Part shown: piece after piece, positions 14,291 through 23,797 of the stretch
Layout: every line of letters begins with the position of its first letter
Numbering within the stretch: the stretch's first letter is position 1
Source of the DNA: Elusimicrobiota bacterium
GTDB lineage: Bacteria > Elusimicrobiota > Elusimicrobia > Elusimicrobiales > UBA9959
Reading direction: 5' to 3'
Assembly (NCBI GenBank): GCA_037137395.1
Contig: JBAXKK010000035.1
Span: forward strand, 1-23,797
Length of the DNA stretch: 23,797 nt
The notes under the pieces: model-generated
What the model was told of the DNA's origin: nothing
The model's database searches: none
Seen by the model: only the letters and a program-made list of their open reading frames with translations
Made by a program: the position numbers and the translations under genes

Positions 14291-14314
14291 AATATATTTT
14301 CCTCCGGAAAATAT

Positions 14315-14595
14315 GCCATAGGCTATAAGCTTTAGGCTTTACACTTTACGCTTTACGTTTTCCGCTTTACGATTTAAGCCATAGGCTACAAGCGAATAAC
14401 TACGCCATAAGCTATAGGCTTTAGGCTTTAGGCTTTAGGCTTTAGGCTTTAGGCTTTAGGCTTTAGGCGAATAACTACGCCATAGGCTATAAGCTTTAGG
14501 CCATAAGCAGAATAAAGATCGCTCACTATTTACGCTTTACACTTTACTTTTTCCGCTTCACGCTTTACGCTTTCCGATTGCCGATTTACGCTTTA
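14315..14595. repeat. Modular heptamer tandem-repeat array A
   Basis: Units GCCATAG/GCTATAA/GCTTTAG/GCTTTAC/GTTTTCC; 7 perfect GCTTTAG at 14418-14466; linkers GCGAATAACTAC and GCAGAATAAAGATC; runs into the last codons of the AAA gene. Confidence 0.95.
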
Positions 14596-15722
14596 ACCCC
14601 GCCTATAAAATCTTTGTAATTTTTTGAGGTCACCAGCGAAACTTCCGCGTCAGGATATGCCTGTGAAAACACTTTCGGGATCCTGAATTTTTCTTTTCTC
14701 CATTTTACTTCAAACGCCCACAAATGTCCCCCGCCTTCTTCCAGATAATCTATCTCCTGTTTTTGGGCTGTCCGCCAGAAATACCCTTTTCTATCAAGGG
14801 CAGTATTGGCGAGGAATTTCCGTCTTTCAGATATAACAAAATTTTCCCACAAAGCCCCCACATCCTGGCGCAGATCAAGCGGATTAAGATTGTTTATAAG
14901 AGCGTTGCGGAGCCCGGTATCGTAGAAATAAATTTTACGGAGTTTTTTAAGTTCGTTGCGCAAATTCCTGCTGAACGGCCCCACTCTGAAAATGATAAAC
15001 GCCTTCTCAAGGATCTGAATATAGGACGCCACGGTATTCTTGTCTATCCCCAAAAGGCCGGCCAGCTCATTATAAGACACCTCATTGCCGACCTGGAGCG
15101 CCAAGGCCTGCAGGAGCTTTTCCAGCAGATCCGGGTTTTTTATATTCTGGTATTTAAGAACATCCTTGTACGAATAGCTCCGCGCAAGACTTTTAAGATT
15201 CACCTCGGTATTTTCTTTACCGGCCACTATTTCAGGGTACATGCCATAAATAATACGGCGCTCAAGCAGCCTGTCCATCTCAACTTCCGAATAGAAAGAA
15301 GCTAATTCATGAAAAGAGAATGGATAGAGCAGAAACTCCCTCTTTCTTCCGGTTAAAGGCTCGGCTATTTTGTCTGAAAGCTCAAAAGAGGACGAGCCGG
15401 TGGCAAGGATCTGCGTGGACGGCAGATTGTCGGCTATTATTTTGAGCGTATGGCCGATATTTTTGACCTGCTGGGCCTCGTCAAGAACAATAAACTTTTT
15501 TCCCTTAAAAAAAACTTTAAGCTCTGTAGAAGTCTTGTCTGTCAAAGCGGCACGGATGTCAGGTTCATCGCAATTTAAATACGCTGACTGCCCCGGATGC
15601 TTTTTAAGTATCTCCCGGACCAAAGTAGTCTTACCCACTTGCCGCGCGCCATAAAGTATAAGGACCTTGTTTTTAAAAAGGCTCTTTTCAATACTCGCCT
15701 GTATAGTTCTCTTAATATGCAT
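14586..15722 (-). CDS. AAA+ ATP-binding protein (AAA_14 + DUF4143 type), second copy
   Basis: Walker A GARQVGKT, Walker B VLDEAQ, TGSSS, LTGRK, GMYPE, KIYFYDTG, LWENF, EIDYL..FEVK; ATG at 15722 (MHIKR) preferred over GTG at 15743. Confidence 0.9.
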   Translation of the reverse strand: MHIKRTIQASIEKSLFKNKVLILYGARQVGKTTLVREILKKHPGQSAYLNCDEPDIRAALTDKTSTELKVFFKGKKFIVLDEAQQVKNIGHTLKIIADNLPSTQILATGSSSFELSDKIAEPLTGRKREFLLYPFSFHELASFYSEVEMDRLLERRIIYGMYPEIVAGKENTEVNLKSLARSYSYKDVLKYQNIKNPDLLEKLLQALALQVGNEVSYNELAGLLGIDKNTVASYIQILEKAFIIFRVGPFSRNLRNELKKLRKIYFYDTGLRNALINNLNPLDLRQDVGALWENFVISERRKFLANTALDRKGYFWRTAQKQEIDYLEEGGGHLWAFEVKWRKEKFRIPKVFSQAYPDAEVSLVTSKNYKDFIGGVKA

Positions 15723-15728
15723 GTTTTG

Positions 15729-15784
15729 GGTGAATCCATTCACCTAATATTACATATATTAGGATATTTGGAGGTAAATATCAA
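15729..15784 (-). promoter_or_regulatory. Predicted sigma70 promoter with palindromic operator-like sites upstream of the second AAA gene
   Basis: Minus strand TTGATA (15779-15784), 17 bp spacer, TAATAT (15756-15761); palindromes GGTGAAT-CC-ATTCACC (15729-15744) and CCTAATAT-N5-ATATTAGG (15743-15763). Confidence 0.55.
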
Positions 15785-15787
15785 CAC

Positions 15788-16205
15788 GCCATAAGCCGTT
15801 TGCCATACGCAGAATAACGATCGCCATAGGCTATAAGCTTTAGGCCGTAAGCGAACTACGCCATAAGCTATAAGCTTTAGGCCATAAGCAGAATAAGAAG
15901 CGCTATTTGCCATTAGCCGTTTGCCATTTGCAGAAAAAACTGCCATTCGCCGTTTGCCATATGCCATTCGCAGAATAAAGATCGCTCACTATTTACGCTT
16001 TACGCTTTACGTTTTCCGCTTTACGATTTAAGCCATGCGCAGAATAAGAAGCGCTATTTGCCATTAGCCGTTTGCCATATGCAGAAAAAACTGTCATTCG
16101 CCGTTTGCCATACGCAGAATTGCTTACTATTTACGCTTTACGTTTTCCGCTTTACGATTTAGGCCATTTGCAGAATTGCTTACTATTTACGCTTTACGTT
16201 ATTTT
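15788..16205. repeat. Modular heptamer tandem-repeat array B
   Basis: Blocks of 3-6 heptamers (GCCATAA, GCCGTTT, GCCATTT, GCTATAA, GCTTTAG, GCTTTAC) separated by GCAGAA(T/A).. linkers; internal 74-bp and 31-bp duplications. Confidence 0.95.
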
Positions 16206-19897: not shown

Positions 19898-20950
19898 TTA
19901 CGCGTGAGAAGAGAGATACCACTCGTAGCTTTGTTTTACGCCGTCTTTTAAGGGGATCGCGGGCTGCCAGCCCAACGCCCGTATCCTTGAGATGTCTAAA
20001 AGCTTTCTGGGGGTGCCGTCAGGTTTAAAGGTGTCGTATTTTATGGCGCCGTCGTACTCAACCGCGTCTTTTATTATATGCGCCAGCTGTTTTAATTTCA
20101 GATCTTCACCCGTGCCGATATTCACTATCTCGCCGATGTCGGAATAATCGCATTTCTCCATCAGGAACAGGGCCGCTGCCGCCATGTCGTCCACGTGCAG
20201 AAATTCCCGGTAAACTTCGCCGGTGCCCCAGAGGAGGACGCTGTCCGCCGTAACGCCTATGGACTCCAAAGCGGCGGCAATAGAGCCTTCGTCCTTAAAA
20301 TTAATTTTTTTATCCAGACCGAAGCCTATGGGACGCTTCTGCAAATCTTTAGAGAGCGCGGAAAAATCCTTAAGCTTCAAAAGCTTTGCCAGATGGAATT
20401 TCCTCAGTATGGCGGGCAGCACATGGGCGGTTTCCAGGTTATAGTTATCATGCGGCCCGTAAAGATTGGTGGGCATCGCCGACAGATAATTAGTGCCGTA
20501 CTGTTCGTTGTAATACCGGCACATTTTTAAAGCCGCTATTTTTGAGATCGCGTAAGCCTCGTTGGTAGGTTCCAGCGCGCTTGTAAGGAGCGATTCCTCC
20601 TTCATCGGCTGGGGAGCGAGTTTGGGATAGATGCACGAAGAACCGAGGTTTAAAAGTTTTTTTACTCCCGTCTTATAAGCGGCGTCTATAACATTAAGGG
20701 AAATAGCCAGGTTGTCATAAATGAATTCGGCTTTATAGGTACTGTTAGCGAGTATACCCCCGACCCTTGCAGCGGCGAGGAAAACCCAATCCGGTTTGTT
20801 TTTTTTGAAATAGTCCTCGGTTTCCTTCTGCCTTTTCAAATCCAGCTTGTCGTGATTTTCAACCAGCAGATCGTGCTTTTTGCCGGCAGCCAGTTTCCGG
20901 TAAATAGCCGAACCGACCAAACCCGTGTGCCCCGCGATATATGTTTTCAT
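19898..20950 (-). CDS. fcl: GDP-L-fucose synthase
   Basis: AGHTGLVGSA, AARVGGILAN, LGSSCIYP, EPTNEAYAISK, MPTNLYGP, WGTG..REFLHVDD, KPDGTPRKLLD. Confidence 0.92.
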   Translation of the reverse strand: MKTYIAGHTGLVGSAIYRKLAAGKKHDLLVENHDKLDLKRQKETEDYFKKNKPDWVFLAAARVGGILANSTYKAEFIYDNLAISLNVIDAAYKTGVKKLLNLGSSCIYPKLAPQPMKEESLLTSALEPTNEAYAISKIAALKMCRYYNEQYGTNYLSAMPTNLYGPHDNYNLETAHVLPAILRKFHLAKLLKLKDFSALSKDLQKRPIGFGLDKKINFKDEGSIAAALESIGVTADSVLLWGTGEVYREFLHVDDMAAAALFLMEKCDYSDIGEIVNIGTGEDLKLKQLAHIIKDAVEYDGAIKYDTFKPDGTPRKLLDISRIRALGWQPAIPLKDGVKQSYEWYLSSHA

Positions 20951-20958
20951 AATGATCC

Positions 20959-22449
20959 TTACCGGCGATCAAAAAAAGATTTAAAGCTATCCGAGATATA
21001 CTTCAGCATTTCTCCGGTCATACCGGGGTAGACGCCTATCCAGAAGGTGTCGCGCATGATCTGGTCGGTGACGGGCAGTGAAGAGGCAAAGCGATTTAGA
21101 GGCAAGGACGCATGGCCTACGACGCGAAAGCCTTTGCCGGAGCGGCGCATTTCGTCGAAGCAGGGGTGCTTTATAAGGTTACCGGCGAACAGCACGCGGG
21201 TCTGTATTTTATTGGCCTCAAGATGGCTGACCAGATCTTCGCGGGTAAAGCCGGCGTTTGCCTTGACCGTCAGCAGGAAGCCGAACCAGCTTGGGTCGGA
21301 ATTATCGGCGGGCTCGGGCAGTATAAGCTTGTCCGAAAAAGCGTTAAGGGCTTTGCGCAGGTATTGCCAGTTCTTTTTTCTGGCCTCTATGAATTTGGGA
21401 AGCTTCTCAAGCTGGGCCAGGCCGACGGCCGCCTGCATCTCGGTGGCTTTGAGGTTATAACCGAAATGGGAGTAAACATACTTATGGTCGTAGCCCAAAG
21501 GAAGTTCGCCGAACTGCCGGGTGAATCTCTTACCGCAAGTGTTATCTTTGCCGGAAGGACACCAGCAGTCGCGTCCCCAGTCACGAAAAGAATCCACAAG
21601 CCTTTTAAGCTGGGGGTTATTAGTATAGACCGCCCCGCCCTCGCCCATGGTCATATGGTGAGGCGGATAGAAGCTGGAAGTGCCGATATCGCCGAAGGTT
21701 CCGGTGTATTGTAGAGGTTTAGCAGCCTGGAGGCAAAGCCGTTTAGCGGGATGGCCCCCTGTACCCAAGCTGCCTTGCATCCTAATCGCTTTGCATCCAA
21801 GCTGCTTTGCCTCTAAATCGCTTTGCATCCTGTACCGACTGCCCAGAGCGTCGCAGTTATCCTCAATTAGCCAAAGGTTATGTTTGTCGCAGAAAGCACG
21901 GACTGCTTTCAGGTCGAAGGGGTTGCCCAAAGTATGAGCCACCATTACGGCCTTGGTCTTTTTTGAAAGAGCTTTTTTCAGCAGGGAACAGTTGATATTA
22001 TAGGATGGCAATTCAACATCCACGAATACGGGGACCGCGCCATACTGGATTATAGGCGTAACAGTGGTAGGAAAGCCGGCGGCTACGGTTATAACTTCAT
22101 CACCGGGCTTTATGCGCTTTGCGCCAAGTTTTGGGGAAGTCAGGGCCATGAAAGCCAGAAGATTGGCCGAGGAGCCGGAATTTACCAGAGAAACATGCCT
22201 GACGCCAAGGAATTCACCGAACTTTTTCTCGAAAGCGTCAACATAGGGGCCGGAAGTAAGCCAGAAATCAAGGGCGGAATCGACAAGATTGCACAATTCT
22301 TTCCCGTCGTATATCCTGCCGCCGTAAGAGACAAAAGATTTGCCGGGCTCAAAGTCCTTTTTTTTATGGAAAAGGCGATGGTACTCCGAAACCTTACGGA
22401 GTATCTCTTTGCGCATTTTTTTATCGGTTTCAGCAGTTTTGAGGCTCAT
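20959..22449 (-). CDS. rfbH: CDP-4-keto-6-deoxy-D-glucose 3-dehydrase (RfbH/DdhC) carrying two in-frame repeat insertions
   Basis: LDFWLTSG, NSGSSANL, AHTLGNPF, SFYPPHHMTMGEGG, Fe-S motif GRDCWCPSGKDNTC, YDHKY, TFWIGVYPG. Confidence 0.93.
   Translation of the reverse strand: MSLKTAETDKKMRKEILRKVSEYHRLFHKKKDFEPGKSFVSYGGRIYDGKELCNLVDSALDFWLTSGPYVDAFEKKFGEFLGVRHVSLVNSGSSANLLAFMALTSPKLGAKRIKPGDEVITVAAGFPTTVTPIIQYGAVPVFVDVELPSYNINCSLLKKALSKKTKAVMVAHTLGNPFDLKAVRAFCDKHNLWLIEDNCDALGSRYRMQSDLEAKQLGCKAIRMQGSLGTGGHPAKRLCLQAAKPLQYTGTFGDIGTSSFYPPHHMTMGEGGAVYTNNPQLKRLVDSFRDWGRDCWCPSGKDNTCGKRFTRQFGELPLGYDHKYVYSHFGYNLKATEMQAAVGLAQLEKLPKFIEARKKNWQYLRKALNAFSDKLILPEPADNSDPSWFGFLLTVKANAGFTREDLVSHLEANKIQTRVLFAGNLIKHPCFDEMRRSGKGFRVVGHASLPLNRFASSLPVTDQIMRDTFWIGVYPGMTGEMLKYISDSFKSFFDRR
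21084..21107. repeat. Three octamer units inserted in frame near the rfbH 3' end
   Basis: AGGCAAAG CGATTTAG AGGCAAGG; 22/24 match to the reverse complement of 21805-21828. Confidence 0.8.
21715..21828. repeat. In-frame octamer-repeat element with inverted arms inside rfbH
   Basis: Right arm of 8 octamers at 21765-21828 (CCAAGCTG CCTTGCAT CCTAATCG CTTTGCAT CCAAGCTG CTTTGCCT CTAAATCG CTTTGCAT); left arm of 4 inverted units at 21715-21746. Confidence 0.88.
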
Positions 22450-22540
22450 TTCAGTCCCTCAGTATAAAATCGCTTATTATATAGTTAACCTGGTTGCAGT
22501 TGGCGCGTTTTGTCGCCGCGGGTAGCCCAGATTTTCCTAT

Positions 22541-22638
22541 TCCGTCTTTCCGGCGAAAGCCGGAATCCAGGTATTCTTGATGCTGGATACCGGCTTTCCC
22601 CCCAGTTTCACGGTGGGGCAGGCTGCCGGTGAGACGGA
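22541..22638. repeat. REP/RPE-like palindromic element with a nested hairpin
   Basis: Left arm CCGTCTTTCCGGCGAAAGCCGGAATCCAG (22542-22570); right arm CTGGATACCGGCTTTC[26 nt]GCCGGTGAGACGG (22583-22637). Confidence 0.75.
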
Positions 22639-22723
22639 CCAACTGAAGGTTAATTATAGCAATTTGCTGGAGAGGATTAGAGGGCCAAAGGACTGGCAAA
22701 TGCACCCAAAGGACCCACTTGGC

Positions 22724-22871
22724 TCGAACGATGGATGCCGGGGGATCTGGGTTAGCGAAACCGTACCGGACCGTGCCACTTGCGTAGCGTGGCGCGGGAG
22801 GTCCGGAAGTGCGGCCACGGTGTGGCCGACACTGATTTCGCGTTCCAGTCCCACGGCAGCCAGCGAACCGA
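22724..22871 (+). other. Structured intergenic element (candidate MITE-like element or ncRNA)
   Basis: About 30-bp imperfect closing stem (22729-22760 with 22836-22865) enclosing stems CCGGACC/GGTCCGG, GTGCCAC/GTGGCGC and CGGCCAC/GTGGCCG. Confidence 0.55.
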
Positions 22872-22949
22872 AAGATGATAACTAAGCGACGGATTTGGGT
22901 GACGAAACTTCGAATCTTATGTGTAAGTCTCGCATACAGATTGCTGGAA

Positions 22950-23693
22950 TTAGATCTTTATGCGCAGGTCATCAACGGCGGCCTGGGTGTTTTTGAAGGT
23001 TTTCCTGGCTATTCTTTGGGCGTTTTCACGGTCTTTCATGGCGGGGTATCTGTCGGCGCCAAAATGGACAAGGACCAGCTTTTTGACGCCGGCTTCTTTG
23101 GCCAGCGCGGCCGCGCTTTCCGGGTTCATGTGAGGCCAGCCCGGATTCTCTTCCCCCGGCCTGTGGGCGCACTCACTTATAAGCAGGTCCGCGCCCGCGG
23201 CCAGTTTTAATGAATTCGGGCAATAGCCGGTATCGGTGCAATAAGTCACTATTTTGCCGTCTATATTAAATCGATAGCCCAGCACGGGATCGGCGTGGAC
23301 CAGGGGGAGGCATTTGACGTCAAACGGGATTCGCGCGATCTGCGCCGGCAGCTCCAGAACGCCGGTTTTGGTCTTTAAATTTTTCAGCGGTATGGTGAAC
23401 GGGCGGCGAAGGATTGAATTTAGTGTTTTATTGGCGCCTTTACCGGCGCAGATAGTCATGCCCTTTTTAAAATTAAACTTTGTCAGGATGTGAAGGCCGA
23501 CTATGTGGTCCAGATGAAAATGGCTTAAAAAAAGATAAACAGGTTTTGAACCGTCCACATATTGGTCCAGCTTATAGATGCCGTTGCCGGCGTCCATAAC
23601 GATGTCATATTTTTCGGTTTTGAGAAGCACGCAGACAGCGTTACCGAGTTTTGTATCGTACCAACCGTTGGTGCCGAGGAATATTATTTCCAT
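22950..23693 (-). CDS. MBL-fold metallo-hydrolase (ribonuclease Z/BN-like)
   Basis: IIFLGTNG start, DAGNG, SHFHLDH (HxHxDH), YCTDT, ADLLISEC, H..P..AA, LVLVHF. Confidence 0.88.
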   Translation of the reverse strand: MEIIFLGTNGWYDTKLGNAVCVLLKTEKYDIVMDAGNGIYKLDQYVDGSKPVYLFLSHFHLDHIVGLHILTKFNFKKGMTICAGKGANKTLNSILRRPFTIPLKNLKTKTGVLELPAQIARIPFDVKCLPLVHADPVLGYRFNIDGKIVTYCTDTGYCPNSLKLAAGADLLISECAHRPGEENPGWPHMNPESAAALAKEAGVKKLVLVHFGADRYPAMKDRENAQRIARKTFKNTQAAVDDLRIKI

Positions 23694-23717
23694 ATAGAAT
23701 CAATATCGATATAGTTT

Positions 23718-23797
23718 GCCATAAGCTATAGGCTATAGGCTATAGGCTTTAGGCTTTAGGCTTTAGGCTTTAGGCTTTAGGCGAATAACTACGCCAT
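23718..23797. repeat. Heptamer array C (truncated by the window end)
   Basis: GCCATAA, GCTATAG x3, GCTTTAG x5, GCGAATAACTAC GCCAT; 78/80 identical to 14404-14483. Confidence 0.95.

Follow-up and report, generated by a model that had tools for sequence, protein, structure and literature searches.

The ORF-bearing intervening sequences of 23S rRNA enclose a gene of the four-helix-bundle family PF05635 between complementary arms. Rickettsia palindromic elements (RPEs) are hairpins of ~100–150 nt that lie both between genes and in frame within conserved enzymes; as far as the accessible text of the reports goes, they consist of a fixed 105–146 bp sequence encoding a conserved peptide, and the copy in Gmk is translated and tolerated (PMC2229807, PMC10969869). 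Tandem heptamers make up the arrays of Xanthomonas and Nostoc (PMC4692102) and the TAACTGA repeats of Beggiatoaceae (PMC4679880), which the available portions of these papers describe as mostly intergenic near stop or start codons, often arranged as inverted pairs, intragenic in a minority of cases and unexplained in function. REP/BIME and REPIN sequences with their RAYT are, in the part of the source at hand, dispersed palindromic repeats found downstream of genes, sometimes intragenic and tied to a gene that the repeats flank (PMC3733652), and the tandem repeats of Borgs are described, again in the accessible part, as fast-evolving sequences within ORFs that create disordered regions at conserved hotspots (PMC9879509).

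Here, we describe an in-frame repeat insert in the rfbH gene of an Elusimicrobiota bacterium (Elusimicrobiales; UBA9959) whose 2.7-Mb genome (herein referred to as G000) is assembled in 174 contigs. The window, that is, the whole stretch of DNA that was analyzed, comprises 23,797 nt (positions 1–23,797, forward strand, of contig JBAXKK010000035.1, assembly GCA_037137395.1). Its minus-strand ORF at 20959–22449 matches NF011936 at 729 bits (cut-off 423), which identifies it as RfbH, and PDB entry 3BCX with an E-value of 5.8e-163, and its nearest homologues carry the labels Elusimicrobiales or Elusimicrobia. A previous sequence-only reading of this DNA had described the frame and the catalytic motifs as intact, and this holds: the ORF is unbroken, and H265 and C295/C305 are invariant among 64 homologues, H265 presumably being the counterpart of the catalytic histidine described for E1 in the accessible part of PMC8987622. 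The following features are relevant, with word A denoting the octamer word of the inserts:

20959–22449, minus strand: rfbH, the host gene, encoding CDP-4-keto-6-deoxyglucose 3-dehydrase (E1), 496 aa in an intact frame (NF011936, 3BCX)
21079–21114, minus strand: in-frame insert at site 2, residues 446–457, C-rich arm only, word A (alignment with homologues)
21709–21831, minus strand: in-frame insert at site 1, 123 nt, residues 207–247 (41 aa) (alignment with homologues; pLDDT < 50 at 217–243)
21712–21746, minus strand: four octamers that form the C-rich arm of site 1 and complement its G-rich counterpart (repeat scan and fold)
21747–21764, minus strand: spacer and hairpin loop of site 1, holding the inner CCTGTACC (21758–21765) (fold and relatives)
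21765–21831, minus strand: G-rich arm of site 1, eight octamers with a 16-nt higher-order unit, word A (repeat scan)
22950–23693, minus strand: metallo-beta-lactamase-fold (MBL) gene upstream of rfbH (orthologue context)
23709–23793, no strand assigned: heptamer array at the contig end, matching the downstream arm of the PF05635 cassette of a sister genome (G001)

Elsewhere in the window, the intergenic stretch 22490–22950 holds two other dispersed repeats (~190 nt and ~135 nt) with many genome copies, and one relative (L150) has a 1.5-kb insertion at 22822–22824 with a 339-aa transposase-like ORF. An AAA_14/DUF4143 ATPase gene (14586–15743) is inserted in the sugar cluster between mixed heptamer arrays that are long and of equal orientation (14309–14599 and 15983–16164), and a second AAA_14/DUF4143 gene lies at 46–1320. 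The GDP-fucose synthase gene (19898–20950) has an internal stretch of ~40 aa outside the family model match, in which no repeat array was found.

The site-1 insert is flanked by DALGSRY and YTGTFGD, between which the sequence-only reading had noted 41 residues in place of the usual few; alignment with homologues, which have 3 or 7 residues here, upholds this claim and defines a net insertion of 34–38 aa with an unconserved peptide, at the place where a short link joins residues 201 and 205 of the 3BCX chain. On the gene strand, eight G-rich octamers are followed by a short spacer and four complementary C-rich octamers. As had been described, the G-rich octamers stand in register at 21765–21828 with 16/32 periodicity, and the four inverted units at 21715–21746 match 21781–21812 at 23 of 32 bases (82% complementary as an inverted pair). 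The proposed ability to fold back is likewise borne out by prediction, with a free energy of −53.3 kcal/mol (z −3.98) that none of 200 shuffles equaled and that only 2 of 500 synonymous recodings of the peptide matched. Contigs of two sequencing runs, X1 (possibly the source sample) and X3 (from the same study), bridge the insert with zero differences, and the insert is therefore not an assembly artefact. The octamer CCTGTACC, reported on both sides of the eight-unit block, is indeed present at 21758–21765 and 21829–21836, but does not stand as a boundary signal: one of the two copies belongs to the native flank, and the near-identical insert of a related genome (G025) lacks the duplication, which is altered in other relatives. 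Because the pair spans one arm only and is lost in relatives, we reject it as a target-site duplication; no such duplication flanks the whole element, which speaks against a MITE. In the structure model, pLDDT is below 50 over residues 217–243 and the remainder matches the E1 fold; the insert is disordered in the model, and its translation into a floppy loop is likely.

Word A is widespread in the genome. A scan of all 2.7 Mb with a 13-base consensus (at most one mismatch, clusters of at least two units) found 37 clusters versus 2 in the reversed-genome control, and after one cluster (C90) had been dropped as chance, 36 arrays remained, which refutes the notion that the octamers occur nowhere else. 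All except one (35 of 36) are intergenic or overlap a gene end, and they most often begin at a stop codon (by crude ORF calls); the arms run G-rich then C-rich in 32 of 36, and the detected spans range from 29 to 218 nt. Scanning for periods de novo yielded at least 192 period-7 arrays (at least 14 inside long ORFs), at least 29 period-8 arrays (at least 7 inside long ORFs) and at least 35 period-16 arrays (at least 7 inside long ORFs), the last overlapping the period-8 set. Since there are many further array words, some of them inside long ORFs, in-frame repeat tracts are a genome-wide habit, and the rfbH locus, as one of roughly 20 such tracts, is alone of modest weight. There are also ORFs (C11:36254–36386, C1:103887–104023 and C50:16817–18444) in which two different words are adjacent in frame, as if arrays already present attract new ones.

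Set beside the described systems, the word-A hairpins share with RPEs their occurrence both between genes and in frame in a conserved gene, and the earlier view that a protein loop here tolerates a small repeat element, after the manner of an RPE, is well founded given the 36 arrays, the unconserved peptide and the loop modelled as disordered. They differ from RPEs in consisting of tandem octamers of variable span with no fixed unit, and in that the rfbH site takes many different words across phyla; by analogy, the rfbH insert would work like an RPE, yet it is not an RPE. The arrays of the rfbH family resemble the published heptamers as these are portrayed in the accessible text, differ in the 8/16 period of the rfbH insert, and have no parallel there as regards a link to PF05635 cassettes or word swapping at one coding site (PMC4692102, PMC4679880). 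With REP/REPIN sequences, to the extent that the source describes them, the word-A arrays share dispersal, a position downstream of genes, occasional intragenic location and association with a gene flanked by the same repeats; we nevertheless rejected this assignment, since just 5 of the 36 word-A arrays have a GTAG/CGTC tag no more than 12 nt from an end, and a RAYT link was also rejected, with none of the 4 Y1_Tnp genes sharing a contig with a word-A array in the 174-contig assembly. Borg repeats, in the part of the report available, are similar in being fast-evolving, within an ORF and disorder-forming at a conserved hotspot, but are direct repeats of archaeal extrachromosomal elements, whereas the rfbH arrays are inverted, lie on a bacterial chromosome and have a unit not divisible by three. 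A covariance-model scan of 20900–23797 against Rfam (E ≤ 1) gave no match over the element, which speaks against a group I/II intron or a known RNA family. Within the open literature searched, we found no description of octamer arrays inside rfbH or of a link between such arrays and PF05635. New in the present work, besides the survey for cargo with its negative outcome, are the exchange of words between sister genomes, the lateral movement of an insert between divergent alleles, an allele in which the insert has collapsed, and a long-range complement that is unique in the genome.

Both the presence and the wording of the inserts turn over rapidly. Long site-1 inserts occur in 38 of the best 120 homologues and site-2 inserts in 58 (a tally that mis-parsed rows make about 3 too high), and in an alignment of 64 of these 120, the two sites are the only internal variable regions of at least 4 columns. 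The site-1 inserts are found in Elusimicrobiota, Nitrospirota, Geobacteraceae and their class, and one Bacillota-labelled record; at least three phyla have different 7- or 8-mer words in the same rfbH loop, and the site-1 peptides of different alleles are unrelated. Between G000 and its sister genome G001, identity is mostly 86–97% in the flanking blocks but falls to 28–33% at site 1 and to 46% at site 2, where the words are unrelated; both words are nevertheless present in either genome (with 35 and 7 pattern matches). In a 93%-identical allele the insert has collapsed to 30 nt, the normal loop length. The rfbH of G025 belongs to another clade (support 100), and its insert region is 80–86% identical to that of G000 versus 33–77% elsewhere, which indicates that the insert has moved between these divergent alleles, in either direction. 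A FastTree phylogeny of insert-free cores (leaving out rows P0043 and P0055, with L013, L014 and L016 also absent) implies 22 changes between insert and empty states among 139 rows and, with word classes that are rough peptide patterns, 21 word changes among 48 insert rows. Two ordinary junctions bearing word A in G000 likewise have other words or none in relatives (30 and 18 loci listed); the genes there we take to be atpG, atpD and efp. A record labelled Margulisbacteria (L081) has an unrelated palindromic repeat in frame in the same rfbH loop; the site thus accepts other hairpin elements too.

The sequence-only reading had missed the second in-frame word-A tract at 21079–21114. Its positions 21086–21105 are a perfect 20-nt complement of 21807–21826 in the G-rich arm of site 1, and this core has no match beyond 16 nt elsewhere in the genome. 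When 785 nt spanning both sites are folded, the two sites are predicted to pair (21830–21807 with 21082–21105, ~24 expected pairs), leaving the inner hairpin intact. Relatives have two mismatches in the site-2 complement, at 21093–21094. Across the 15 two-site alleles, only 2 have a complement of at least 20 nt between the sites, and we accordingly reject a conserved long-range stem as a general rule; the low count leads us to read the long complement as a sign of local copying rather than of conserved structure. Over these 15 alleles, sites 1 and 2 share words (permutation p 5e-5, a value that overstates the case since it includes kin).

A likely source of these words lies close by. In G025 and G032, the MBL–rfbH pair is immediately preceded by a PF05635 gene whose inverted arms consist of word A, a cassette position that also holds in G001 (directly upstream of the MBL orthologue in all three), and the heptamer array at 23709–23793 in the window is probably the arm of such a cassette cut by the contig end. 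As in the 23S rRNA intervening sequences, a PF05635 gene thus stands in complementary arms, and the arm word is the insert word in G025, G410 and G411; the rfbH site differs from them in being in mRNA, with no ORF between the arms and the frame kept. In four genomes (G409, G410, G411 and G025), the insert shares 25–41 8-mers with the cassette adjoining rfbG or rfbH versus at most 2 with the other cassettes of the genome; sharing of this kind is absent from G413, G001, G021 and G004 and weak in G032. One word often fills the rfbF/rfbG junction, the internal rfbG sites and both rfbH sites of an operon. Of the 13 insert-bearing clusters, 9 have a PF05635-type gene (labelled by motif, and Pfam-confirmed for six) between rfbF and rfbH and 4 have no cassette; of the empty clusters, 0 of 27 have such a gene there. 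In 6 of 9 cases, the insert finds its best match in the arms of the local cassette (p 5e-4, a value that overstates the case since the clusters were chosen, not random, and include kin), the exceptions being G001, G720 and G934. In G000, only one PF05635 gene exceeds the cut-off, and its arms consist of heptamers instead of word A; a word-A-armed cassette was not found in this assembly, from which rfbG and its neighbourhood are missing, and no GxxExxY-type gene (PF13366) exceeds the cut-off. To our knowledge, the PF05635 family lacks an assigned function and its gene has no known nuclease or transposase activity, and no enzyme for array copying was identified. As separate observations, rfbG also bears in-frame repeats, at one to three sites, and their word is often that of rfbH (L284–L289, L415, L417, L418), and a weak PF05635 hit in G000 (L032, C52:13350–14400) stands beside a pair resembling a variable region and template repeat, presumably like the accessory gene of a diversity-generating retroelement.

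The sequence-only reading had also proposed that the insert is the empty form of an element that elsewhere carries a gene. The existence of a PF05635 cassette with word-A arms (G025, G032) fits this proposal; the search for cargo at the rfbH site itself came out negative. The 79 genome and 82 metagenome loci (161 in all) given by frame-blind pattern scans and a set of 234 distinct DNA loci contained no gene, PF05635 or other, between arms at site 1. Of the latter, 233 run in frame across the site, 206 of these without a long insert, and all 27 long inserts seen as DNA are stop-free multiples of three, as against 21 stop-free frames of 210 among intergenic word-A copies; the 27 include three inserts that are not repeat-derived (L076, L200, L205) and the other kind of palindrome in L081. 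Searches with the C-terminal half matched 168 of 401, 20 of 301, 75 of 301 and 14 of 251 genomes, and no unexplained split rfbH was present among the matches listed (one match, G520, is uninformative, as its contig begins at the site). Candidate cargo alleles with short frames were traced to contig ends (G326, G119), assigned to contig ends by position (G009, G536, G958) or attributed to a frameshift upstream of the site (G643), and a further locus (L183), which we did not count as cargo, runs into unrelated sequence without a repeat arm. Among the best 120 of 1555 short N-terminal proteins there was no filled allele, with P0134 and P0218 leaving the frame after a repeat-like stretch (protein records only). 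The PemK-like domains of long RfbH homologues were rejected as site cargo, being N-terminal fusions instead: P0060, P0069, P0071, P0084, P0086, P0095, P0107 and P0119 have an N-terminal PemK/MazF-like domain (PF02452) fused in frame, and most of the homologues so fused also bear repeat inserts. One rfbH (L024:1483–3540, G020) contains an intein-like insertion at EDN|C, which precedes the repeat site by nine codons, with Cys at its start, His-Asn at its end and PF14890 below cut-off; several other phylum matches have open frames of 660–945 aa, and the four such loci that were read have an empty repeat site.

We hypothesize that the insert is a gene-less copy of the inverted octamer array found throughout the host genome. 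It occupies a loop of RfbH without disturbing the frame, is probably translated into a disordered segment and probably derives, by copying in cis, from the repeat arms of a PF05635 cassette belonging to its own operon, an account that we regard as probable, if well short of certain. Under this account, the arrays would be arm sequence, either selfish or passive, that was copied in cis to places able to tolerate it, and a few such places in the rfbF–rfbG–rfbH operon would persist as array sites; array content may be rewritten by recombination or template switching between period-7/8 arrays, length may be resized by slippage, and selection would retain only stop-free lengths divisible by three. 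The spreading or copying step is something we infer, as is any role of PF05635 in it. Removal of the hairpin from the mRNA, which had been suggested earlier, or its bypass by the ribosome, in the manner of an intervening sequence or intron, is recommended by the stable stem and by the naming of the PF05635 family from 23S rRNA intervening sequences, but we consider it highly improbable: all 27 DNA alleles with long inserts remain in frame and free of stops, which argues for translation and against removal, no Rfam model matches the element, and neither its ends nor its words show the conservation expected of a splice signal. Contigs of eight DNA runs do have joints across the site; these have other letters and are the empty alleles of other organisms, and hence say nothing on splicing.

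Alternatively, the hairpin could be the scar of a whole cassette that inserted at the rfbH site and was excised by recombination between its arms, so that the frame was regained, with repeated cycles changing the word. Word A flanking a PF05635 gene in G025 and G032 and the wholesale replacement of words would both fit insertion and excision, and filled alleles would be short-lived because they break rfbH; still, no filled allele was encountered in the 161 pattern-scan loci, the 234 distinct loci or the genome matches listed, and the single-arm tracts at site 2 and in rfbG are unlike the outcome of excision between two arms, making this history rather improbable. An unlikely explanation, though less so than the scar, is that the arrays are functional RNA elements, serving as binding sites for the PF05635 product of the operon itself or as stems that adjust how the polysaccharide mRNA is processed or stabilized, retained even within coding loops and changing with the cassette. 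It would account for the recurrence of one word within an operon, at as many as four or five sites, for the predicted stem between 21830–21807 and 21082–21105 with its ~24 expected pairs, and for the repair, in the G000 allele, of the two mismatches seen in relatives, and a regulatory role has been suggested for the Beggiatoaceae heptamers in the accessible part of PMC4679880. Against it, 206 of 233 in-frame loci do without the long site-1 insert, the hairpin is lost in a close relative, the complement of at least 20 nt is confined to 2 of 15 two-site alleles, and the bases changed at 21093–21094 vary freely among family members. Copying in cis into tolerant sites is the reading that we retain. 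A bolder reading, which we consider rather unlikely, is that PF05635 cassettes make up a cis-acting system, so far undescribed, in which each cassette would write or maintain a 7/8-base word of its own at fixed hairpin positions along its operon, enzyme loops included. If this were so, a change of cassette would rewrite distant positions jointly, its targets would include the rfbH inserts and the stem that pairs them over a long range, and the abundant heptamer and octamer repeats of many bacteria would have an explanation.

Arrays of 7- and 8-mers are common in bacteria and unexplained, as the available text on the heptamers makes plain (PMC4692102, PMC4679880), and the rfbF–rfbG–rfbH operon offers a compact test system in which several fixed sites and many words are combined with a cassette in cis and with natural alleles that are empty, collapsed or swapped. 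Insert peptides of this kind in protein databases should be recognized as repeat read-through. The locus shows that disordered loops are repeatedly made and replaced in a conserved PMP/[2Fe-2S] enzyme.
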